Shown: positions 29,750 through 41,257, numbered from the stretch's first letter. The stretch: 64,000 nt of DNA from Candidatus Gastranaerophilales bacterium (GCA_944323035.1 CALUQY010000001.1:3131-67130), one strand, 5' to 3'. Notes: generated by a model not told the origin, from the sequence alone. Program-made: numbers and translations.

Positions 29750-30400
29750 CCGAGCAGAGGCAGGAGCAAGGCAAAGCCTTGCGAACAGGCGAACACGCGA
29801 CCGGCAAAACCGCGATTTTGGCGGCAAGTGTGAGCGGTGCCGTTTAACGCGAGGGCGTAAAAGCTCACAAAAAACGGGAAATCTATACAATAGACAATAA
29901 GTAATTTTCAAATAAAAAAAGCCATTCCTGACGGAATGGCTTTTTAATAAAGCAGTTCTCCGCCGCACCGCCTCGCGTCTTGCTCGACTCACGTTTAACG
30001 GCATTCAGGCAAAAACGCGGTTTTGCCTTGGAATGCCTCAGTTCGCTCGCGCTGAATGCATCAGCCGATGTTCGCAGTGTCGGCACACGGGAGTGTGACG
30101 AGCAGGCGAACATAATATCTCCGCCGTTTCTAATCTTTGATTTGACAGGCGGAAGAAACCGCGAGCCGCGCGTTTCCCTCTCGAAAAACAGTTCACTGAA
30201 TTGTTTTTCTCGGCAGAGTGCTGTCTACCTCTCGCGAAACAATTCACTGGATTGTTTCGCTCGGCAGAGTGCCACTCAAAAGACTCGGCCACTGAGTGGC
30301 TTCCACATTCAGTGTATACGCTCACTGTAACGATTGATACAAGTATGGCTCCGGCTCAGCCGGGCGCGAGTCTTTCTCGGACAATTTATTACAACATCTT
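29750..30400. repeat. Cluster of GC-rich interspersed repeat modules including a 2-copy ~45-bp tandem
   Basis: aataaagcagttctccgccgcaccgcctcgc at 29945 (also at 20665 and 27100). tcagccgatgttcgcagtgtcggcacacgggagtgtgacgagcag at 30061. Tandem aacagttcactgaattgtttttctcggcagagtgc / aacaattcactggattgtttcgctcggcagagtgc at 30185-30285. gccactcaaaagactcg at 30280; gcgagtctttctcggacaa at 30366. Confidence 0.6.
29921..29945 (+). terminator. Terminator hairpin gccattcctgacggaatggc + T-run (copy 1 of a 30-bp direct repeat)
   Basis: Exact hairpin plus flanks repeated at 31013-31037. Confidence 0.65.
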
Positions 30401-30433
30401 GACAACCACTGGTTGTCATGTTATAATAAGGAT

Positions 30434-30712
30434 ATGATTAAATCATTCAAACATAAAGGTTTGGAAGAGTTTTTTAACACCGGCTCAAAAAAAGGCATCC
30501 AAGCTATACACGCAGAAAAATTAGTATTAATTCTGGCAATCCTTGATACAATGAAAAATCTTGAACCTTTACAACCGGCAATGTTCAGACTCCACAAACT
30601 TGAAGGTAAAATGAATGATTTATGGTCAATTACAGTTCAGGCAAACTGGCGGATAACTTTTCGATTTGAAAATGAAAATGTTTATGTCGTTGATTATCTG
30701 GACTACCACTAA
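30434..30712 (+). CDS. higB: HigB-family (RelE/ParE-fold) toxin
   Basis: MIKSFKHKGLEEFF...RLHKLEG...WSITV..NWRITFRFENENVYVVDYLDYH, the classic HigB 'killer protein' pattern. SD aaggat sits 3 nt upstream of this ATG, which is preferred over the track start at 30413. Confidence 0.85.
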   Translation: MIKSFKHKGLEEFFNTGSKKGIQAIHAEKLVLILAILDTMKNLEPLQPAMFRLHKLEGKMNDLWSITVQANWRITFRFENENVYVVDYLDYH

Positions 30713-30723
30713 GGAGGTCGAAT

Positions 30724-31002
30724 ATGTTTAACCCGCCGCATCCGGGAAAAATATTAAAAGAAATCTATCTTAAAGATTATAATCTGACTGTCACTGAATT
30801 CGCACTAAAAATCGGAGTTTCCAGAAATACGGCTTCGGAACTCATAAACGGCAAAAATCGTGTGACTGCAGAAATGGCACTAAAATTGGCTAAAGCATTT
30901 AAAGTGTATCCACAATTTTGGCTGGATTTACAAGCAAAATATGACCTATGGAATGCAGAACAGTCTGTTAATCTTGATAACGTTCAGGTAATTGCAATAT
31001 AA
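30724..31002 (+). CDS. higA: HigA antitoxin (XRE-family HTH)
   Basis: HPGKILKEIYL.....TVTEFALKIGVSRNTASELINGKNRVTAEMALKLAKAF....FWLDLQAKYDL. Confidence 0.85.
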   Translation: MFNPPHPGKILKEIYLKDYNLTVTEFALKIGVSRNTASELINGKNRVTAEMALKLAKAFKVYPQFWLDLQAKYDLWNAEQSVNLDNVQVIAI

Positions 31003-31012
31003 AAAAAGAAAA

Positions 31013-31037
31013 GCCATTCCTGACGGAATGGCTTTTT
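31013..31037 (+). terminator. Terminator hairpin gccattcctgacggaatggc + T-run (copy 2)
   Basis: Identical to 29921-29945; sits 3' of higA. Confidence 0.65.
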
Positions 31038-31045
31038 ATTAACAC

Positions 31046-31186
31046 TTGAAAAAATTTTCAAAACTGGTATAATAATAAAAAAGGGAGCCGGCTAAGCTCT
31101 TCCCAGCCTAACCGGTTTGTCACCCCCTTTAAATGAACAATTGAATTAATTTAATCAAGAACTCTAGCACTCCTAGAGTTCTTTTT
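31046..31186 (+). ncRNA. Candidate small RNA 1 (~105 nt): consensus sigma70 promoter to intrinsic terminator
   Basis: -35 TTGAAA (31046-51), 16-nt spacer, -10 TATAAT (31068-73). Terminator gaactctag-cactc-ctagagttc + TTTTT at 31159-31186. No credible ORF in between. Confidence 0.35.
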
Positions 31187-31284
31187 ATTAACTCTCTATT
31201 CATCGTATCAGCTCCCTTCTTCGCCTATTATCACCATAATATTTGTTGCTCGAGGGGAGTTGGCAGGGCTACCCTTTTTAATAC

Positions 31285-31417
31285 TTGAAAAATTTTCAAA
31301 AACCGGTATAATGAAAGTATAGGGAGGCGGTTGCGCCAACAACCGCCAACGCAGTCCCTATATGAATAACGAAATAATTTGTAAAACTTGTCCTAAGAAT
31401 GCCAGGGCAAGTTTTTT
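31285..31417 (+). ncRNA. Candidate small RNA 2 (~100 nt): duplicated promoter, long 5' hairpin, intrinsic terminator
   Basis: Identical TTGAAA-N16-TATAAT at 31285-31312. Hairpin tataggga-ggcggttg..caaccgcc..tccctata at 31329-31371. Terminator cttgtcc..gggcaag + T6 at 31387-31417. Confidence 0.35.
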
Positions 31418-31423
31418 AATGTT

Positions 31424-32578
31424 CTATTTCATATTAATAAACGGGATGGAATTGCCCATCATGTATTGCGGCAAAATTCCGTTCCATTTTTGTACCGCTT
31501 CATATTCAACAAGAGCTTTGTTTTGTGTCAGGGCGTTCGCTCTGATACTCATTGATTTCGCTTCTGCTTCTGCTGAAATAACCTTTTGTTTTGCTTCTTC
31601 CTGAATTTGAACGGTTTTATTTTTAGCTTTCAGAGCGTCTTGTTCTGCCGTTACTTTGCTTTCAATCGCGCGTTCAAAGACTTCGGAATATCCAATATCA
31701 ATTATTTGGAAATCTGTTACGTTAACATATCTTTCTGTAAGCTGCTCTTTTAATTTTGCGAGGATATCATTTGTTGCTTCTTCACGGTTTGCAACAAGAT
31801 CCTGCGCGTTCCATTTACCGATAACGTCTTTGATTGTACCTTCAAGAACAGGATTGATTACTTTTGATACGTAATCCATACCTACTTCCTGATACATTCT
31901 ATATGCGCTGTCCGCAACAAGATTATAGTTTACAACATAAGAAATTTTTGCCTGTTGAATATCTTTTGTGTAAACGTGGGTTTGAGTAGTGTATTTTTGG
32001 GTTTTAACATCCATTTTCGCTATTCTCTGGATGTACGGCATGATAAAGTGCATACCTTCACCAAGGCTTTCCGGCGAAACTTTTCCCAGAGTAACTTTTA
32101 CACCGCGTTGTCCTACCCCGACAACAACAATAGGATTACAAAGCAGCACTGCTATCACAAACAGTATCAAAACTGTAACCACACCTGCTACACCATTTTT
32201 GTCCATGTTTTTTACCTCTTTTCCTGTATTTGTAATATAACTTTGAAATTTATCTATAAAATCCTTGAAAGGATTTACACCTGAAACCTTTTTATCATCA
32301 ACCCAGGCTTCAACATCAATCACGTCATCTTCATCTGTTTTCTTTTTCGTTGCATGCCTGTCCGTTTTAGAAAAATTTGTTCTTCGCCGCGCATTTATTT
32401 TGGCGTTTACAATAAACGGCGGACTGAAAATCAGCACCAGAACGACAATGATAAAAATAAAATCAAACAAATTGCCCAATATTCCACTTTTAAGCGACGG
32501 TAATGTCATTGCCGCAATGACCCCTAGAATTCCAAGAATAACAAAAATTTCTGCAAGAGTATAACTTTTATATCTCAT
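31424..32578 (-). CDS. SPFH/band-7 (prohibitin/HflC-like) domain protein with N-terminal membrane region
   Basis: C-terminal two-thirds reads VVVGVGQRGVKVTLGKV...MHFIMPYIQRI.KMDVKTQ......DIQQAKISYVVNYNL then a coiled-coil, i.e. a band-7 domain. N-terminal 120 aa are membrane and charged segments. Confidence 0.6.
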   Translation of the reverse strand: MRYKSYTLAEIFVILGILGVIAAMTLPSLKSGILGNLFDFIFIIVVLVLIFSPPFIVNAKINARRRTNFSKTDRHATKKKTDEDDVIDVEAWVDDKKVSGVNPFKDFIDKFQSYITNTGKEVKNMDKNGVAGVVTVLILFVIAVLLCNPIVVVGVGQRGVKVTLGKVSPESLGEGMHFIMPYIQRIAKMDVKTQKYTTQTHVYTKDIQQAKISYVVNYNLVADSAYRMYQEVGMDYVSKVINPVLEGTIKDVIGKWNAQDLVANREEATNDILAKLKEQLTERYVNVTDFQIIDIGYSEVFERAIESKVTAEQDALKAKNKTVQIQEEAKQKVISAEAEAKSMSIRANALTQNKALVEYEAVQKWNGILPQYMMGNSIPFINMK

Positions 32579-32775
32579 TATTGCCCTCCAAGCCCGAGAA
32601 TTGACATAACAATAAACGTTATAATCACAAGTAGTGCGAAACCGGCATAACCGATTAAAATTTCTTTGCCGAACCGTCTGTACATATTAACGCCAAAAAT
32701 AAGCCCGACAAGCGATATCACAAGGTTTGTTATCACAACGAACGCCAATAAAAAAATCAAAATTCTTACAGCCAT
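32578..32775 (-). CDS. Small two-TM membrane protein (possibly NfeD-like partner of the SPFH protein)
   Basis: 65 aa, two hydrophobic helices, translationally coupled upstream of the SPFH gene. Confidence 0.3.
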   Translation of the reverse strand: MAVRILIFLLAFVVITNLVISLVGLIFGVNMYRRFGKEILIGYAGFALLVIITFIVMSILGLGGQ

Positions 32776-34929: not shown

Positions 34930-36309
34930 TTACAGAAACTTCCTTTTTACAAAACAGAATAGAAACCGCTCAACCGTTTGAAGTATTACAACATCGGCAT
35001 CCCCTATATTACTTTTCTTGACGTCATAAGTCCAATAGTAAGATACATCACGGAAAGTATTAGAAATAAACGGTAACATCGCACGGGAAAATGAATCCCG
35101 AAACATAACAAGTTTTGGTGCATCAATGTCCTTATGTGAAAACATATCATTATGCGACAACAAATCGCTCGGAGTGGTATCTTTTATAGAAAATTCATAG
35201 TCTTTTGTTATAAATGCATCTACATATTCGGTATTTGCAGCCGCACTCTTAGATAATCCAATCAACATATTATCTAATTCTTTAATTCCCGCCTTATATC
35301 TAACAAATTTTTCAGGTTTTACCGGCTCAATATCAACGCCATCATTAATCAATGCATCTGCCAATGCTTTATACCCGACATATCCGCCTAAAGAGTTCCA
35401 ATGCGTATCATTTTTCCAGTATAAAAGCTCGCCTTTTTCCTTAGCCTGATACAGTTCATTATATGGATAAATCACCTTAATATCCGTATGTTTATGCAAA
35501 TAATTTATCAACTGCATAACACGGCTTTTGCTATTAGGAATAGTTTGTTTTATATAATCAGGATAATACTCACCATAGATTTTATTCTTATCCGGTCCAA
35601 TAAAGAAATAAAAACGCTTATTCCTTTGTTTACAATATTCATCAACTGAAACCAGATAGTTAGCAATATATTTTAATTCATCATCGGTAAACAAATCTAA
35701 ATTCAGGAAATTACGAACACCATTCTCTCCTTTATAAAATAACCAGTCATCTTTGCCTATCACAACATCCGGCTGATTTTTATCTAAAACAAATTTTGCA
35801 TTAAACTTTAGCAGCAGATTTCTTAAGTTAAATCTGTCACTGAACCATTTGTCATAATCGCGGCCAAAATTATAGTTTATTTGTCCTTTTTTGTTGATAA
35901 ATGGCTTCCATACCGCAAGATTTCGGTTCTCTGCATCTGATTTTTTTGCATCTGAGATATGGCTCATCGGAAGAAACATTATTACTGTACATACTGCCAA
36001 AAATACTATATCTATACGGGAATACTTCTTCTCTGTCTTAAAATCCGCAAGATATGAAGTCAGTTTATACGATAGCAGATAACCTAATATCGCAATGATT
36101 ATAAACGGCAACGCGTCAAACTTTACACTCGGACGAACGGGTTTGCGAGATTGGCTGTTTATAGCGGGTAAGGCACGCCCCCCCCCCCCCCGCACTGTTT
36201 GCACGGCAACAGGTGATTTCGGTTTTATCGTAAGCCACGCATTGTGGCTCAAGCCTAATATCACGAATACAAGTAATATACTTATTATACTTCTTTTACG
36301 CATTAACAT
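34930..36309 (-). CDS. AlgJ/AlgX-like (DHHW-family) polysaccharide O-acyltransferase-associated protein, paralog A, in-frame G14 tract
   Basis: TM1, then R-GGGG-R encoded by G14, then TM2/TM3 (ALPFIIIAILGYLLSYKLTSYLADF), then a periplasmic domain NRNLAVWKPFINKKGQINYNFGRDYD...WKNDTHWNSLG (DHHW-type motif variant DTHW). Confidence 0.6.
   Translation of the reverse strand: MLMRKRSIISILLVFVILGLSHNAWLTIKPKSPVAVQTVRGGGGRALPAINSQSRKPVRPSVKFDALPFIIIAILGYLLSYKLTSYLADFKTEKKYSRIDIVFLAVCTVIMFLPMSHISDAKKSDAENRNLAVWKPFINKKGQINYNFGRDYDKWFSDRFNLRNLLLKFNAKFVLDKNQPDVVIGKDDWLFYKGENGVRNFLNLDLFTDDELKYIANYLVSVDEYCKQRNKRFYFFIGPDKNKIYGEYYPDYIKQTIPNSKSRVMQLINYLHKHTDIKVIYPYNELYQAKEKGELLYWKNDTHWNSLGGYVGYKALADALINDGVDIEPVKPEKFVRYKAGIKELDNMLIGLSKSAAANTEYVDAFITKDYEFSIKDTTPSDLLSHNDMFSHKDIDAPKLVMFRDSFSRAMLPFISNTFRDVSYYWTYDVKKSNIGDADVVILQTVERFLFCFVKRKFL
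36178..36191 (-). repeat. Homopolymeric G14 tract (C14 on +) inside coding region
   Basis: Counted: ccc + cccccccccc + c at 36178-36191; encodes RGGGGR in frame. Confidence 0.9.
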
Positions 36310-36314
36310 TTCTC

Positions 36315-37718
36315 CTAAAATCTAAAATAAATAAACGGATTATACGTTGAAGCCGCTATGGTCGCAGTTGAGAAAATCAACAGCACAATAAGCCAAACAT
36401 TCACAAAGGCTTTTACAATTTTGTTTTCCTGTTGCAGCATCTTCCCGCACAACGGCGTACAGCAAATAAATGCAGCTGCAAAAATTATAAATTCAAAATT
36501 ATCAACATAATACGGCAATGCATAAATTACATCATGAACTTTAACCAGCCCGAACATATTTTTAATATATGTCCACGCATACGCCATATCTTCAGCCCTG
36601 AACATTACCCAGCCGATTACAAATACAAGAATTGTATAAATATGTTGAAGGACTTTCTGCCAGATATATTGTTTTTCTTCATGCCAGCCGGTTAATTTTT
36701 CCAGAATAATAAAGAACCCGTTCCACGCGCCCCATACAACAAAATTCCACGCAGCACCATGCCAGATACCAGTCAGGAGAAAAACTATACCCAAATTCCG
36801 GATAGTTTTCCATTTTCCGGCTCTGTTTCCGCCAAGCGAAATATACACATACTGTTTGAACCATGTCGAAAGTGATATATGCCACCTGCGCCAAAATTCC
36901 GTAATAGATTTTGAAATATAAGGATAATTAAAGTTTTCAAGGAAATGAAACCCGAAAATAAGCCCAAGACCTATTGCCATATCCGAATATCCCGAGAAAT
37001 CAAAGAACAACTGCAAAGAATATGCAATGCTTCCCAGCCATGCAATAAGCGGCGAAAAAGTATCCGGCGCCTGAGAAAATATTTTATCCGCAATAGCCCC
37101 CATTGTATTTGCCAGAAGCATCTTTTTAGATAAACCTACAATAAAACGCTTTGTTCCGAATACAACTTTTTCAAAGTTAACATCACGATTATCTATCTGA
37201 TCCGCGACATCATGGTATTTAACAATCGGCCCTGCTATTAACTGCGGGAACAAACATATATAAAGCGCAAGTTTATAAACATCCTGCTGTGCCTTACATT
37301 CTCCACGATACACGTCTACGACATAAGACAAAGCCTGAAAGGTATAAAAAGAAATACCAATCGGCATTACAATATGGAGTAAATCAATATGAGAATGGAA
37401 AAGTCCATTAATATTCTCAATTAAGAAGTTAAAATATTTGAAGTAAATAAGTGAGCCTAGATTGATACAAATAGTCAAAATCAAAGGAATCTTAGCATTT
37501 CTGCCGGATTCTTTAAACTTTTCAACGATTTTTGCGCCATAAAAATTAACAAGTATCGTTAAAAGCATTATAGCCAGATACTTAGGCTCACCCCATGCAT
37601 AAAATATTATGCTTGCGACAAGTAAAATCGGATTGTGAAGCTCTTTTTTGGAAATCAAATAGAGCAAGCACACAATCGGCATAAACATATACACAAACGT
37701 CATTGACGAAAATAACAC
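36315..37718 (-). CDS. MBOAT-family membrane-bound O-acyltransferase (AlgI/DltB/PatA-like)
   Basis: Multi-TM protein; MBOAT signature WRRWHISLSTWF...GIWHG with the conserved His. Confidence 0.85.
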   Translation of the reverse strand: MLFSSMTFVYMFMPIVCLLYLISKKELHNPILLVASIIFYAWGEPKYLAIMLLTILVNFYGAKIVEKFKESGRNAKIPLILTICINLGSLIYFKYFNFLIENINGLFHSHIDLLHIVMPIGISFYTFQALSYVVDVYRGECKAQQDVYKLALYICLFPQLIAGPIVKYHDVADQIDNRDVNFEKVVFGTKRFIVGLSKKMLLANTMGAIADKIFSQAPDTFSPLIAWLGSIAYSLQLFFDFSGYSDMAIGLGLIFGFHFLENFNYPYISKSITEFWRRWHISLSTWFKQYVYISLGGNRAGKWKTIRNLGIVFLLTGIWHGAAWNFVVWGAWNGFFIILEKLTGWHEEKQYIWQKVLQHIYTILVFVIGWVMFRAEDMAYAWTYIKNMFGLVKVHDVIYALPYYVDNFEFIIFAAAFICCTPLCGKMLQQENKIVKAFVNVWLIVLLIFSTATIAASTYNPFIYFRF

Positions 37719-39442
37719 TAATTACCCTCCTTGTATAAAAATTTTAATCTTATAGCAGATGATAAACAGAGCACTAATACATTTGTATTATTATTCAATA
37801 TATCCTTTTCAAAACGTTCAATATTTAAGTTTTTAAAAGCCAGACTAATTTCCGGAAGCCAGGTATAAATTCTTTCTGTATTTTTAAAGCTATAAACAAT
37901 AGATTGTAAAAGATTTTCACCCATAGAATCTCCCCAAAGAGTCAAATTTGGAGCGGCAACATCATGTTTAAAATGTTTTAGCTTGTAATTTGCAGGATAA
38001 TTGGAATCAATCTTTAATGAAACATTTTCAGATTCTTTATTTTTATAATACTTATATTCAGTATCAAAAATTTTTTCATCTTTTAAGTGTAATACATTTG
38101 CAGTAAAACCGTTATGAAATGGGCGTTCCGGTTCGACCCTTACCTTTGGTGAATAAAAATAACTAAAATCACTCTCGTCATTAACATAAATAGAAGGAAA
38201 ATCCTTTTTTATATACTGCATTAAACATTTATATGCAAGATAAGCACCCTCATCAGTCCAATGGTGATCAGTCTTGTAAAAAAGCAATTCTTTACCGTTT
38301 GCAGCATTCTTAAATTCATCAATCGGATACAAAATATCAACATTTATCTTATTTTTAACATACTCTTTCACTTGCATCGTACGTGCATATTCATTACTTT
38401 TTGCAACCAGCGGAAATAGATTTGCTGAATAAACGTCATATTTTGAAGGGGCAATTAAAATATAAAATTTTATATTATTTTTCAGACAAAATTGTTTTAA
38501 ACGATTTATACTATAAACTATTCGTTCCAATTCCTCATTATTATAATAGCCGGATGATGGCCAATACGTATTACTCATCCAATTATTTCTTTTATTTATA
38601 AATCCCTGTTTATTTTCAAAATAATAAAATGCTATTTTATATTTAAATTGATTATAAAAAGATACTAAATATTCACGTAAATTAAACCTGTCACTGAACC
38701 AATTATCGTAATCACGCCCAAAATTATAGTTTATTTGACCTTTCTTATTAATAAATGGCTTCCAGACTGCAAGATTACGGTTTTCAGCATCTGAAAGTTT
38801 AGCATCAGAAATATGACTCATTGGTAAGAATAAAAATAACGCACAAATAATTAAAAATATTATATCTATACGGGAGTAATTACCAACGACCTTAAAATCT
38901 GCCAAATATGAGGTCAGTTTATACGACAGCAGATAACCTAATACCGCAATGATTATGAATGTCAATGCTTCAAATTTTATACCGGAGCGGACTTTTAGTT
39001 TTTCAGGATATGTCAAGCTGAAAGTATTAGCAGAAGGCATTAAGGAGTCCCCCCCCCCCCCGTACGTAGCACAGGACGCTAACTTAAACTCGGATACAGA
39101 TGGAAATTTAAACTTACCATTCTTCAGCGTAATATCTTTTATTTCAATTGGAGATAAATTCGATGATTTAACTACAATTCTAAAGCGTTTTGGGAATCTA
39201 GCTCTATCTATTTGACATTCACATTTCTGTATATTTCCATTCAAGTGTTTCTTTATAACGCACTGTTTTACTTTTTTAAAATCCTCATTATCCTTCTTAT
39301 TCAACTGGACGGTAAATGTATAATCTCCGTTACCTTTTACCAGAAAACTCACCGGCATTGGTTTAAATATCAGCCAGTGATTGCAGGTAAGAGCTAGCAT
39401 AATTATTGTCAAAACCCCGCTTATAATATCTCTTCTTCGCAT
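37718..39442 (-). CDS. AlgJ/AlgX-like DHHW-family protein, paralog B, in-frame G13 tract
   Basis: FYKTDHHWTDEGAYLAYK (canonical DHHW). N-terminal 200 aa are ~identical to paralog C. ATY-GGGG-DS encoded by G13. Confidence 0.65.
   Translation of the reverse strand: MRRRDIISGVLTIIMLALTCNHWLIFKPMPVSFLVKGNGDYTFTVQLNKKDNEDFKKVKQCVIKKHLNGNIQKCECQIDRARFPKRFRIVVKSSNLSPIEIKDITLKNGKFKFPSVSEFKLASCATYGGGGDSLMPSANTFSLTYPEKLKVRSGIKFEALTFIIIAVLGYLLSYKLTSYLADFKVVGNYSRIDIIFLIICALFLFLPMSHISDAKLSDAENRNLAVWKPFINKKGQINYNFGRDYDNWFSDRFNLREYLVSFYNQFKYKIAFYYFENKQGFINKRNNWMSNTYWPSSGYYNNEELERIVYSINRLKQFCLKNNIKFYILIAPSKYDVYSANLFPLVAKSNEYARTMQVKEYVKNKINVDILYPIDEFKNAANGKELLFYKTDHHWTDEGAYLAYKCLMQYIKKDFPSIYVNDESDFSYFYSPKVRVEPERPFHNGFTANVLHLKDEKIFDTEYKYYKNKESENVSLKIDSNYPANYKLKHFKHDVAAPNLTLWGDSMGENLLQSIVYSFKNTERIYTWLPEISLAFKNLNIERFEKDILNNNTNVLVLCLSSAIRLKFLYKEGN
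39049..39061 (-). repeat. Homopolymeric G13 tract (C13 on +) inside coding region
   Basis: Counted cc + 10c + c at 39049-39061. Confidence 0.9.
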
Positions 39443-39532
39443 TTACTCCTCCTTACCTAAACTATATTACAAACAGGGAGAATATTCATTCAAACATTCA
39501 ACATTTTAAATAAAATGTTACAATAAAACAAT

Positions 39533-41257
39533 TTACAACTTTTCCTCAAAAATATCCATAAAAGAATCCATATTTAAGAAACGTTGTAAAAAACGTTCTG
39601 TCGTTTCTATAATTAATATATCCGGTTTTTCAGAAAACAATAGACGTTTCATGTTTTCATTCAAAACAAAATTTCTACCACCACCAAAGAATAGATATTT
39701 ATAGATATGAAAATTTTCAGCCATGAAATACCTACAACGTAATTGAAAACTGTCACCAATTAAAACAAGTTTTAAATCATTTTGAGATTTTGCATTACTA
39801 TACTCATATAGTACATCATCTGAATTATTAGTAACATGTATGATAGATTCTTTAGCATTTGGATATTTGAGTTTATAATAATTAAAGCGATCTTCATATT
39901 TTGCTATAATGTTTTTATTTGTAATATTAAGACTGTCACCAATACGTTTACTACTAACCAATTCAACATCACTAAAATCTAATGGCTGAATATCTACAAA
40001 ATCTTTTTGTAAAGTCGACAGAATCGTTTGATACTCTATAAATGCCCCATCATAATTTAAATGGCTATCAGTTTTAAAAAATACATTTAGCTTTTTTGAA
40101 ACTAATAATAATTTTTCCTTAGAGGTTATTACTGACAAATCATTAATGTGTGAGATTATTGCTAATAATTGTTCATAACGGCTTTGACAATTATTTTGTA
40201 AATAATACTTCGGATAATATTCGGGGTAGATACTTTCTTTATCTGGTGACAACATAATATATAATTTAACATTGTGCTTTTTACAATATAAGTTTAATTC
40301 ATTTAAATTTTGCTGTATTGTAAACAACTCTTCTTTAGAAAATAGATTGTTTTTCAAATACATTTGAGTTGCATTATATGATTTGCGATAACAATAACCC
40401 GAAACCTTATCTAATATCATGACTCTTGTTTCATAGTACCTACCGGGAAGAATAAAATGTAATTGTTCATACAAACCAAACAATACACTCCGTAAACCAA
40501 ACCTGTCACTAAACCAGTTATCATAATCACGACCAAAATTATAATTTATTTGACCTTTTTTATTAATAAATGGCTTCCAGACGGCAAGATTTCGGTTCTC
40601 TGCATCTGATTTTTTTGCATCTGAGATATGACTCATTGGTAAGAATAAAAATAACGCACAAATAATTAAAAATATTATATCTATACGGGAGTAATTACCA
40701 ACGACCTTAAAATCTGCCAAATATGAGGTCAGTTTATACGACAGCAGATAACCTAATACCGCAATGATTATGAATGTCAATGCTTCAAATTTTATACCGG
40801 AGCGGACTTTTAGTTTTTCAGGATATGTCAAGCTGAAAGTATTAGCAGAAGGCATTAAGGAGTCCCCCCCCCCCCCGTACGTAGCACAGGACGCTAACTT
40901 AAACTCGGATACAGATGGAAATTTAAACTTACCATTCTTCAGCGTAATATCTTTTATTTCAATTGGAGATAAATTCGATGATTTAACTACAATTCTAAAG
41001 CGTTTTGGGAATCTAGCTCTATCTATTTGACATTCACATTTCTGTATATTTCCATTCAAGTGTTTCTTTATAACGCACTGTTTTACTTTTTTAAAATCCT
41101 CATTATCCTTTTTATTCAATTGAACTGTAAACGTATAATCCCCATTCCCTTTAACGAAAAAGGTTACAGGTAAAGGTTTAAATATTAACCAGAATTTACT
41201 CGTCAAAACAAGCAATATTATGGTCAAAATAGCACTTATAATATCCCTTCTACGCAT
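39533..41257 (-). CDS. AlgJ/AlgX-like family protein, paralog C (degenerate DSHL motif), in-frame G13 tract
   Basis: N-terminal ~215 aa identical to paralog B (DNA 40615-41257 = 38800-39442). C-terminal domain diverged, FFKTDSHLNYDGAF. Confidence 0.55.
   Translation of the reverse strand: MRRRDIISAILTIILLVLTSKFWLIFKPLPVTFFVKGNGDYTFTVQLNKKDNEDFKKVKQCVIKKHLNGNIQKCECQIDRARFPKRFRIVVKSSNLSPIEIKDITLKNGKFKFPSVSEFKLASCATYGGGGDSLMPSANTFSLTYPEKLKVRSGIKFEALTFIIIAVLGYLLSYKLTSYLADFKVVGNYSRIDIIFLIICALFLFLPMSHISDAKKSDAENRNLAVWKPFINKKGQINYNFGRDYDNWFSDRFGLRSVLFGLYEQLHFILPGRYYETRVMILDKVSGYCYRKSYNATQMYLKNNLFSKEELFTIQQNLNELNLYCKKHNVKLYIMLSPDKESIYPEYYPKYYLQNNCQSRYEQLLAIISHINDLSVITSKEKLLLVSKKLNVFFKTDSHLNYDGAFIEYQTILSTLQKDFVDIQPLDFSDVELVSSKRIGDSLNITNKNIIAKYEDRFNYYKLKYPNAKESIIHVTNNSDDVLYEYSNAKSQNDLKLVLIGDSFQLRCRYFMAENFHIYKYLFFGGGRNFVLNENMKRLLFSEKPDILIIETTERFLQRFLNMDSFMDIFEEKL
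40864..40876 (-). repeat. Homopolymeric G13 tract (C13 on +) inside coding region
   Basis: Counted 7c + 6c at 40864-40876. Confidence 0.9.

Follow-up and report, generated by a model that had tools for sequence, protein, structure and literature searches.

Toxin–antitoxin (TA) systems of type I are hard to find because their toxins are tiny and are skipped by gene callers. In two of the described systems, bsrG/SR4 and txpA/RatA of Bacillus subtilis, toxin and antitoxin are transcribed convergently, the antitoxin RNA is antisense to the 3' end of the toxin mRNA, the Shine-Dalgarno (SD) sequence of the toxin is partly sequestered, the antitoxin has the stronger promoter and the toxin is a small hydrophobic peptide (PMC3834814). 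SR4, transcribed from such a stronger promoter, promotes the RNase III-dependent decay of the bsrG mRNA and in addition tightens the sequestration of its SD (PMC3834814). Here we analyse a short segment of a 64,000-nt stretch of DNA from Candidatus Gastranaerophilales bacterium (CALUQY010000001.1:3131-67130; the whole stretch is called the window). Two small plus-strand RNA genes are predicted between positions 31046 and 31417, the first opposite a conserved hydrophobic open reading frame (ORF) with an SD, the second opposite a related ORF remnant; for this reason the RNAs are best read as cis-antisense type I antitoxins. The region probably comprises two tandem type I TA modules without a match in Pfam, NCBIfam or Rfam, one of which would be reduced to an orphan antitoxin. 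Judged by analogy of layout, bsrG/SR4 is the closest worked-out counterpart of these modules.

The sequence TTGAAA-N16-TATAAT occurs twice on the plus strand, at 31046-31073 and 31285-31312, exactly where a first-pass annotation of the window had placed it, and the two copies agree in their hexamers and in the 16-nt spacing. No further match exists on either strand of the 64 kb; shuffled sequences lead to an expectation of 0.06 and never contained two. The copies belong to a 56-nt direct repeat of 79% identity, in which the spacers differ by a one-base register shift. The promoter of the putative antitoxin RNA A consists of the -35 hexamer TTGAAA (31046-31051), the 16-nt spacer and an extended -10 element, TGgTATAAT (31065-31073). 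The second promoter, that of RNA B, lacks the TG, which is present as TGt in the intact copies of the same type at two related loci, L018 and L029. RNA A is predicted to span ~109 nt (31080-31188, plus strand), with its transcription start site (TSS) placed 7 nt past the -10 box, and to fold into a bulged 5' stem-loop (31080-31130), a single-stranded middle and a terminator hairpin at 31157-31183 followed by a U run. The terminator scan returns this element as AAGAACTCTAG-cactc-CTAGAGTTCTT plus T run (31157-31188 including the T run). RNA B, with a predicted length of ~99 nt (31319-31417, plus strand), comprises a bulged 5' stem-loop (31319-31361) and a terminator at 31383-31411 followed by U6. 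The scan passed over this second terminator, whose 9-nt loop exceeds the scan's loop limit; it was read in the sequence as cttgtcc/gggcaag plus T6 (31387-31417) and is also present in the predicted fold.

Compared with dinucleotide shuffles, the folds of RNA A (-30.4 kcal/mol, z -3.8) and RNA B (-36.2 kcal/mol, z -5.3) are unusually stable. With the terminators located as well, this bears out the description of ~100 nt of structured, non-coding sequence and a strong terminator behind each promoter. The long hairpin at the start of the second transcript is likewise real and takes the form ATAGGGA-GGCGGTTG...CAACCGCC-7-nt bulge-TCCCTAT. As the annotation had also held, the RNAs match no recognised non-coding RNA family: the Rfam scan finds no tRNA, rRNA or other family reaching its gathering score anywhere in the window, and locally, at E≤10, it gives nothing relevant beyond terminator-driven noise. 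The predicted ORF 31362-31604 (80 aa), noted to lack a ribosome-binding site, has no SD and runs through the terminator; because of the missing SD, and because its counterpart in the first module stops after three codons, it is not considered a gene. Other plus-strand coding candidates were rejected as well: RNA A offers only ATG-AAC-AAT-TGA, RNA B a 12-codon ORF with a TTG start that is stopped at codon 3 in L029, and the corresponding RNA C of a third module type an unrelated 13-codon TTG ORF. A riboswitch or leader was rejected on the grounds that no plus-strand gene follows either unit.

The two promoter-to-terminator units of ~100-110 nt, devoid of a conserved plus-strand ORF, are thus very probably small RNAs, as first proposed, but they are not free-standing, the ORFs on the opposite strand having been overlooked. 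Nor are they two unrelated RNAs: unit 2 is similar to unit 1, and the tandem units are diverged paralogues.

Opposite RNA A, the minus strand of module A (31046-31280) carries a 24-aa ORF, MNRELIKRTLGVLEFLIKLIQLFI, which extends from 31203 to 31129 (ATG at 31203-31201, TAA at 31131-31129) and which we refer to as toxin A, a candidate toxin. An SD, GAAGGGAG (31212-31219, minus strand), lies 8 nt before the ATG and in the minimum-free-energy fold is paired with an anti-SD, CTCCCCT (31253-31259, minus strand), in the 5' untranslated region (UTR); an equivalent stands at the same position in module types B and C. The terminator of the toxin A mRNA (31077-31115, minus strand) has a stem of 11 pairs, six of them GC (31115-31088), after which comes CTCCCTTTTTT, with CTCCCT at 31087-31082 and the U run at 31082-31077. 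Its U-rich tail extends into the complement of the antitoxin -10 box. We modelled the mRNA as a ~204-nt transcript (31077-31280, minus strand) whose putative 5' end was placed by conservation with the type A copy at L036, there being no promoter above the scan threshold. The element AAAAAGGG (31279-31272) near this 5' end is complementary to CCCUUUUU at the 3' end, and the model folds with -73 kcal/mol (z -6.1).

RNA A shows perfect complementarity to the 3' ~110 nt of the toxin A mRNA, a stretch that takes in the last 60 of the 75 ORF nucleotides and the stop codon together with 3' UTR and terminator; the terminator hairpin of RNA A itself is located inside the toxin A ORF at about codons 7-16. 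Two G-U pairs in the inner stem of the module on the toxin strand correspond to C-A mismatches on the RNA strand, which hints that the toxin terminator is also under selection.

From this anatomy we infer how module A may be expressed and silenced. Complete as it appears, it would yield a weakly promoted minus-strand mRNA of ~200 nt for a 24-aa hydrophobic peptide, probably membrane-active and in this scheme toxic. The full-length mRNA is proposed to be poorly translated since the predicted anti-SD locks the SD and the two ends of the molecule may pair with each other. The near-consensus plus-strand promoter would produce the ~109-nt RNA antisense to the 3' part of the mRNA. By analogy with bsrG/SR4 and txpA/RatA, the antisense RNA, when present in excess, would pair with this part, probably from complementary hairpin loops, and pairing would then set off duplex-dependent decay, hold the SD shut, or both.

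The same arrangement recurs in relatives, and in all we compared six copies, namely the degenerate type B copy of the window and five intact modules, which fall into three types called A, B and C. Type A is represented by toxin A and its orthologue MNRELIKRTLLVLEFLIKLIRLFV at L036. In L018-L022 and L028 the start region of the type B toxin reads AAAGGAGGTGA-N4-ATG and the peptide MITKEKVKLALAFLGQVLQIISLFI; in L029-L031 the peptide is MITREKVKLALAFIGQVLQMISLFI. Type C, with the peptide MTEQQILVIIKVALWVLGQLCLVIANNL after AAAGGAGGAAACC, comes from L055, an unrelated metagenomic locus beside an SDR gene. In toxin sense, every intact module leads from a 5' UTR carrying an anti-SD through a strong SD to an ATG-initiated ORF of 24-28 codons, its stop codon and a hairpin with a 7-nt bulge, followed by CTCCCT, N8, ATTATA, N16 and TTKCAA, so that it ends in the reverse complement of TTGMAA-N16-TATAAT. 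All five intact modules have a canonical SD, which stands 5-8 nt before the ATG, even though the nucleotide sequences are largely unrelated between types. On the antisense strand TTGMAA-16-TATAAT and an intrinsic terminator are found in six of six copies, with TGn before the -10 box in five. Taking the match to consensus as a proxy for strength, the antisense promoters (10-11 of 12 positions) are stronger than the sense promoters, which match at 9-10 of 12 positions or are undetected. The predicted complementarity between sense and antisense RNAs is perfect over ~100-110 nt.

The antisense RNAs of the three types also adopt the same predicted shape. An outer helix, NWAGGG/CCCUWN, encloses an inner hairpin of unrelated sequence and a 7-nt 3' bulge; the remainder is a single-stranded stretch and then a terminator built from the middle codons of the ORF (fold z-scores -3.8 to -6.6). 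A MAFFT alignment of the RNAs across types is structurally meaningless, and the helices were compared from the individual folds. Several helix columns change on both sides between types, e.g. A-U / A-U / G-C and A-U / U-A / U-A in the outer helix. We regard the modules as a candidate new family, in three sequence types, of a known kind of element, the type I TA system, and not as a new kind of biology.

These regularities speak against the earlier reading of the region as two independent trans-acting small RNAs to which the opposite-strand ORF is incidental. Strong promoters, clean terminators, stable folds and the lack of a conserved plus-strand ORF would all suit such RNAs, but the SD, ATG, ORF length and hydrophobicity on the opposite strand are kept across three diverged types, the RNA terminator always lies within the ORF and the 5' hairpin of the RNA is always the terminator of the ORF, which is hard to explain without a partnership in cis. 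As no trans target can be named either, we consider this reading quite improbable and continue with the modules as candidate cis-antisense TA pairs.

As such, they differ from the Bacillus systems in several respects. No sequence similarity to bsrG/SR4 or txpA/RatA is found with Pfam, NCBIfam or Rfam. TxpA has 59 aa, and SR4 measures ~180 nt compared to the ~100-nt RNAs here. BsrG, with 38 aa (PMC3834814), is longer than the 24-28-aa peptides of the present family. Furthermore, the ORF here contains the antitoxin terminator, and the U tail of the toxin terminator takes in the antitoxin -10 box, which makes the layout of the family unusually compact. The hosts differ too: in place of Bacillus we deal with a diderm, as indicated by the GspD/PilQ secretin (along with a PilB ATPase) that the window encodes. 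The genome of this host has a GC content of 40%. The par system of Enterococcus faecalis (fst/RNAII) resembles the modules in its convergent RNAs that meet at terminators, its small membrane peptide and an RNA that inhibits translation, but RNAII pairs through two separate regions, 5' and 3' (PMC3834814), whereas here the complementarity runs unbroken over ~100-110 nt at the 3' end.

In a different respect, the modelled toxin mRNAs resemble those of hok/Sok and of aapA1/IsoA1 from Helicobacter, as in predicted folds they are compact, an anti-SD shuts off the SD and the two ends pair with each other. In hok/Sok and aapA1/IsoA1 the antisense RNA covers part of the 5' region, and activation of the mRNA comes about through 3' processing. 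In contrast, the overlap in the present modules is at the 3' end, and no sequence similarity exists. T1TAdb recognises type I toxin mRNAs by their SD sequestration, their terminator stem-loops and their 5'-3' pairing (PMC8594479). Using models that run from the conserved 5' element to the terminator, the in-silico folds pair the SD with an anti-SD ~40 nt upstream in five of five toxin mRNAs, and the 5' end with the CUCCCU region near the 3' end. In four of the five models (A of the window, B of L018, B of L029, and C) the longest run complementary to the 3' end is found 77-82 nt before the ATG; in the type A model of L036 the best complement lies elsewhere, 102 nt upstream. This long-distance 5'-3' pairing is a prediction of the models.

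The encoded peptides of 24-28 aa have a polar or charged N-terminus followed by 16-20 mostly hydrophobic residues. Their grand average of hydropathy is 0.9-1.4, reaching 2.0-2.3 in the best 15-residue stretch, which places them in the top 1.4-5% for hydrophobicity among the 141 ATG-initiated ORFs of 20-30 codons in the window (toxin A in the top 3%). All five can be aligned with shared M1, K, L and I positions. Searches of Pfam and NCBIfam with three of the peptides returned no family at E≤10, including no match to the Fst models or to other known type I families such as Hok, Ldr, TisB, Ibs and ShoB, and the Rfam scan likewise links the RNAs to no antitoxin or toxin-mRNA family. In size and kind the peptides are like the single-helix toxins of the Escherichia coli DinQ and TisB type, a comparison made by description, with the Pfam and NCBIfam models giving no match. 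The RNA regulators of DinQ and TisB, agrB and IstR-1, are divergently encoded and partly complementary. DinQ itself is a single-transmembrane inner-membrane peptide of 27 aa that depolarises the membrane when over-produced (PMC3567139).

Several observations weigh against the TA interpretation. The promoter scan detects no convincing toxin-sense promoter in module A of the window or in L018, and those found elsewhere are weak, with 9-10 of 12 consensus matches (TTGAAA-18-TATAGT in L029, TTGTTA-18-GATAAT in L036 and ATGACA-17-TATACT in L055). The covariation supports structure but does not tell which strand is selected, because every hairpin exists on both strands. Individually, the 5'-3' match is significant for type B only (p = 0.0005 and 0.002), with p = 0.07-0.08 for type A of the window and type C and 0.38 for type A of L036, and it hangs on an unmapped TSS, since the best -10 box of L029 puts the start inside or after the 5' pairing element. 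Moreover, the three types are all that is available, from a handful of uncultured lineages, the peptides contain internal E, K and Q residues and are only moderately hydrophobic, and the ORF follows closely behind the co-oriented SPFH gene in four of the five intact copies.

The last point, together with the lack of an intervening terminator in L018 and the amphipathic, not purely hydrophobic character of the peptides, would fit a cis-antisense RNA that tunes a benign small membrane protein, for example an accessory or modulator of the adjacent SPFH/NfeD-like scaffold. Yet type C has an SDR gene as its neighbour, at an unrelated locus, close relatives have the same SPFH operon without the ORF, and between species the modules are more conserved than SPFH, which suggests transfer. 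The combination of SD sequestration with a near-consensus antisense promoter is in addition the design of a tightly silenced toxin (PMC8594479, PMC3834814), and the decayed copy has lost the peptide gene and kept the RNA gene. We therefore judge a benign peptide unlikely, albeit with a better claim than trans-acting RNAs, and retain the toxin assignment as the probable one.

The decayed copy is module B of the window (31285-31423), which is best read as a degenerate module with an orphan antitoxin RNA gene and a dead toxin fragment. The toxin B remnant (31358-31411, minus strand) corresponds to codons 9-25 (LALAFLGQVLQIISLFI) followed by TAG; promoter, 5' UTR, SD and codons 1-8 are missing, whereas sister strains and another species have the ORF intact. 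The frame, having neither start codon nor SD, begins directly after the SPFH stop codon. From this stop to CTTGCC we count 12 nt in the window and 112 nt in L018, i.e. ~100 bp comprising the toxin upstream region, anti-SD, SD and codons 1-8 are lost from the window copy relative to L018. A deletion of this size would have taken the toxin promoter together with the SD and the first eight codons, while the antitoxin gene appears to have survived. Loss of the toxin expression signals with retention of the RNA gene fits TA logic and is an indirect hint in its favour. RNA B of the window pairs near-perfectly with the intact toxin B mRNA of L018, with a predicted duplex energy of -182 kcal/mol compared to -52 to -60 kcal/mol for non-cognate combinations. 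Given this near-perfect pairing with an mRNA of a sister strain, RNA B could, speculatively, act against incoming type B modules.

To follow the modules through related strains, syntenic loci were gathered via homologues of the SPFH protein at graded identity, and the spacers downstream of the SPFH gene were read directly. Nine gut-metagenome contigs encode the identical SPFH (Band_7) protein, and on these the intergenic region is essentially identical to that of the window. At 96% SPFH identity (L013-L017) there is no module and the terminator AAAAAGCCATTCC...GGAATGGC follows immediately after the SPFH stop; this variant is also found on an NCBI contig. A single intact type B module is present at 92-94% identity (L018-L022, L028), and a type B module again at 79% (L029-L031). 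Type A occurs at 72% identity with a 369-aa SPFH protein (P0066; L036 and L037, the latter ending within the toxin ORF). No module is found at 91% (L034/35, a partial match), at 75% (L023-25), at 72% with a 364-aa SPFH protein (P0069; L057-60) or at 71% (L032/33, in a different gene context). Module A and the deleted B occur together in the window lineage, and B alone or A alone in other lineages. On the distal side the modules are bounded by a bidirectional terminator hairpin, AAAAGCCATTCC-tgac-GGAATGGCTTTT (31009-31037, both strands), which stands directly after the SPFH stop in module-free strains. Conservation in related genomes, by which the first-pass annotation had proposed to judge the units, gives a divided answer: many close relatives lack them, but in those that have them the units are better conserved than SPFH. 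Module bodies are 83% (A) and 95% (B) identical between species, against 74% and 78% for the flanking SPFH DNA. This suggests either strong constraint on both strands of the modules or their exchange between lineages. In the antisense promoter the hexamers and the 16-nt spacing are kept between species apart from one G/T change in the -35 hexamer, and the spacer, compared between RNA A of the window and its orthologue in L036, is identical at 10 of 16 positions, the pattern expected of a working promoter.

Within the species (L010, L011, L026 and L027), the sole polymorphism in the 420-bp module region is an A/T difference in the spacer of the RNA A promoter (window positions 31052-31056). The flanking coding DNA of these loci has several synonymous differences.

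Presence/absence polymorphism at one site beside a terminator hairpin, high nucleotide identity between species and an internal inverted repeat, GTATAGG...CCTATAC, are also what one would look for in non-coding mobile repeats, i.e. insertions at terminators that are akin to miniature inverted-repeat transposable elements (MITEs) or repetitive extragenic palindromes, with the promoter- and ORF-like features as by-products. However, comparison of empty and filled sites shows that the ends of the insert, AGTATAGG... and ...CAAGTGTTAAT, are not inverted repeats of each other, and no second copy exists in the 64 kb of the window, nor, beyond the orthologous site, in ~480 kb of fetched loci, so that a MITE is unlikely. 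Since, in addition, three types of unrelated sequence keep a gene-like layout including SD and start codon, this is in our view the least credible of the explanations, and very improbable.

The patchy presence, the conservation above that of the neighbouring gene, the tandem layout and the adjoining HigBA type II TA pair all fit selfish TA modules. A bolder version of this would see the ~240-bp units as self-contained addiction cassettes that belong to a new type I family, move horizontally and land repeatedly between the SPFH stop and the terminator; the toxin-less copy would then persist as an anti-addiction element, its RNA pairing with the type B mRNA of sister strains. We put this forward tentatively, as an extension that is doubtful in its full form although less so than a benign peptide. 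According to a 2025 paper that proposes a cyanobacterial candidate, reports of type I systems have so far come only from Proteobacteria, Firmicutes and Tenericutes (PMC12390103). If the cassettes are real, an uncultured diderm gut lineage that may lie outside these phyla could be added. The natural presence/absence and toxin-deletion variants furnish ready-made genetic controls.

Further copies may be sought with the signature SD-ORF-hairpin-CTCCCT-N8-ATTATA-N16-TTKCAA. On viral contigs the part CTCCCT-N8-ATTATA-N16-TTKCAA matched 17 ordinary leaders composed of promoter, SD and ATG; the signature is consequently specific only when the upstream ORF or hairpin is added. Other scans of viral contigs gave chance matches or none, and blastn of the region against plasmid and phage collections gave no match. 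A strict promoter pattern, AAAAATTTTCAAAA-N2-3-GGTATAAT, retrieved from the genome collection six chance promoters of Firmicutes or Acholeplasma and did not recover the source species; the pattern is too narrow, as the relatives carry GTTATAAT. A degenerate pattern scan of the JGI metagenomes produced one true match, the type C module of L055. Part of that pattern matched L055 by luck, inside the ORF, and the family is for this reason probably under-sampled. The 16-mer GGGGGTGACAAACCGG from the 3' UTR of module A recurs in GC-rich phage contigs (L061-L072) in a conserved, unrelated context and is taken as chance.

A 41-nt terminator hairpin is duplicated on the HigBA side of the modules (29910-29950 and 31002-31042, 93% identical) and flanks a 1092-bp unit. 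This unit begins with a non-coding stretch of ~51% GC containing a 51-nt tandem repeat (30172-30272) and continues with HigB (30413-30712) and HigA (30724-31002). Strains with 96% SPFH identity have a single terminator copy and no HigBA unit, which looks like a cassette inserted at the terminator. A 20-nt inverted repeat (30389-30429), probably the HigA operator, overlaps a perfect TTGACA-17-TATAAT promoter of higBA.

On the other side, the SPFH/Band_7 protein (31424-32578, minus strand) has a prepilin-like N-terminus, KSYTLAEIFVILGILGVIAAMTLPS, the sole such motif among 61 window ORFs, and its homologues vary in N-terminal length (350-391 aa). Its start overlaps the stop codon of a 65-aa two-helix membrane protein (32578-32775, minus strand) without a family match. 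Further away, the minus-strand cluster 34930-41257 contains tandem paralogous genes for 574-aa proteins (37718-39442 and 39533-41257) and MBOAT and ALGX/DHHW-type genes beside a GH38 alpha-mannosidase-like gene, and is similar in make-up to a polysaccharide O-acylation locus. Strains differ in how many copies of the ALGX genes they have, as seen from the comparison of L007 with L010.

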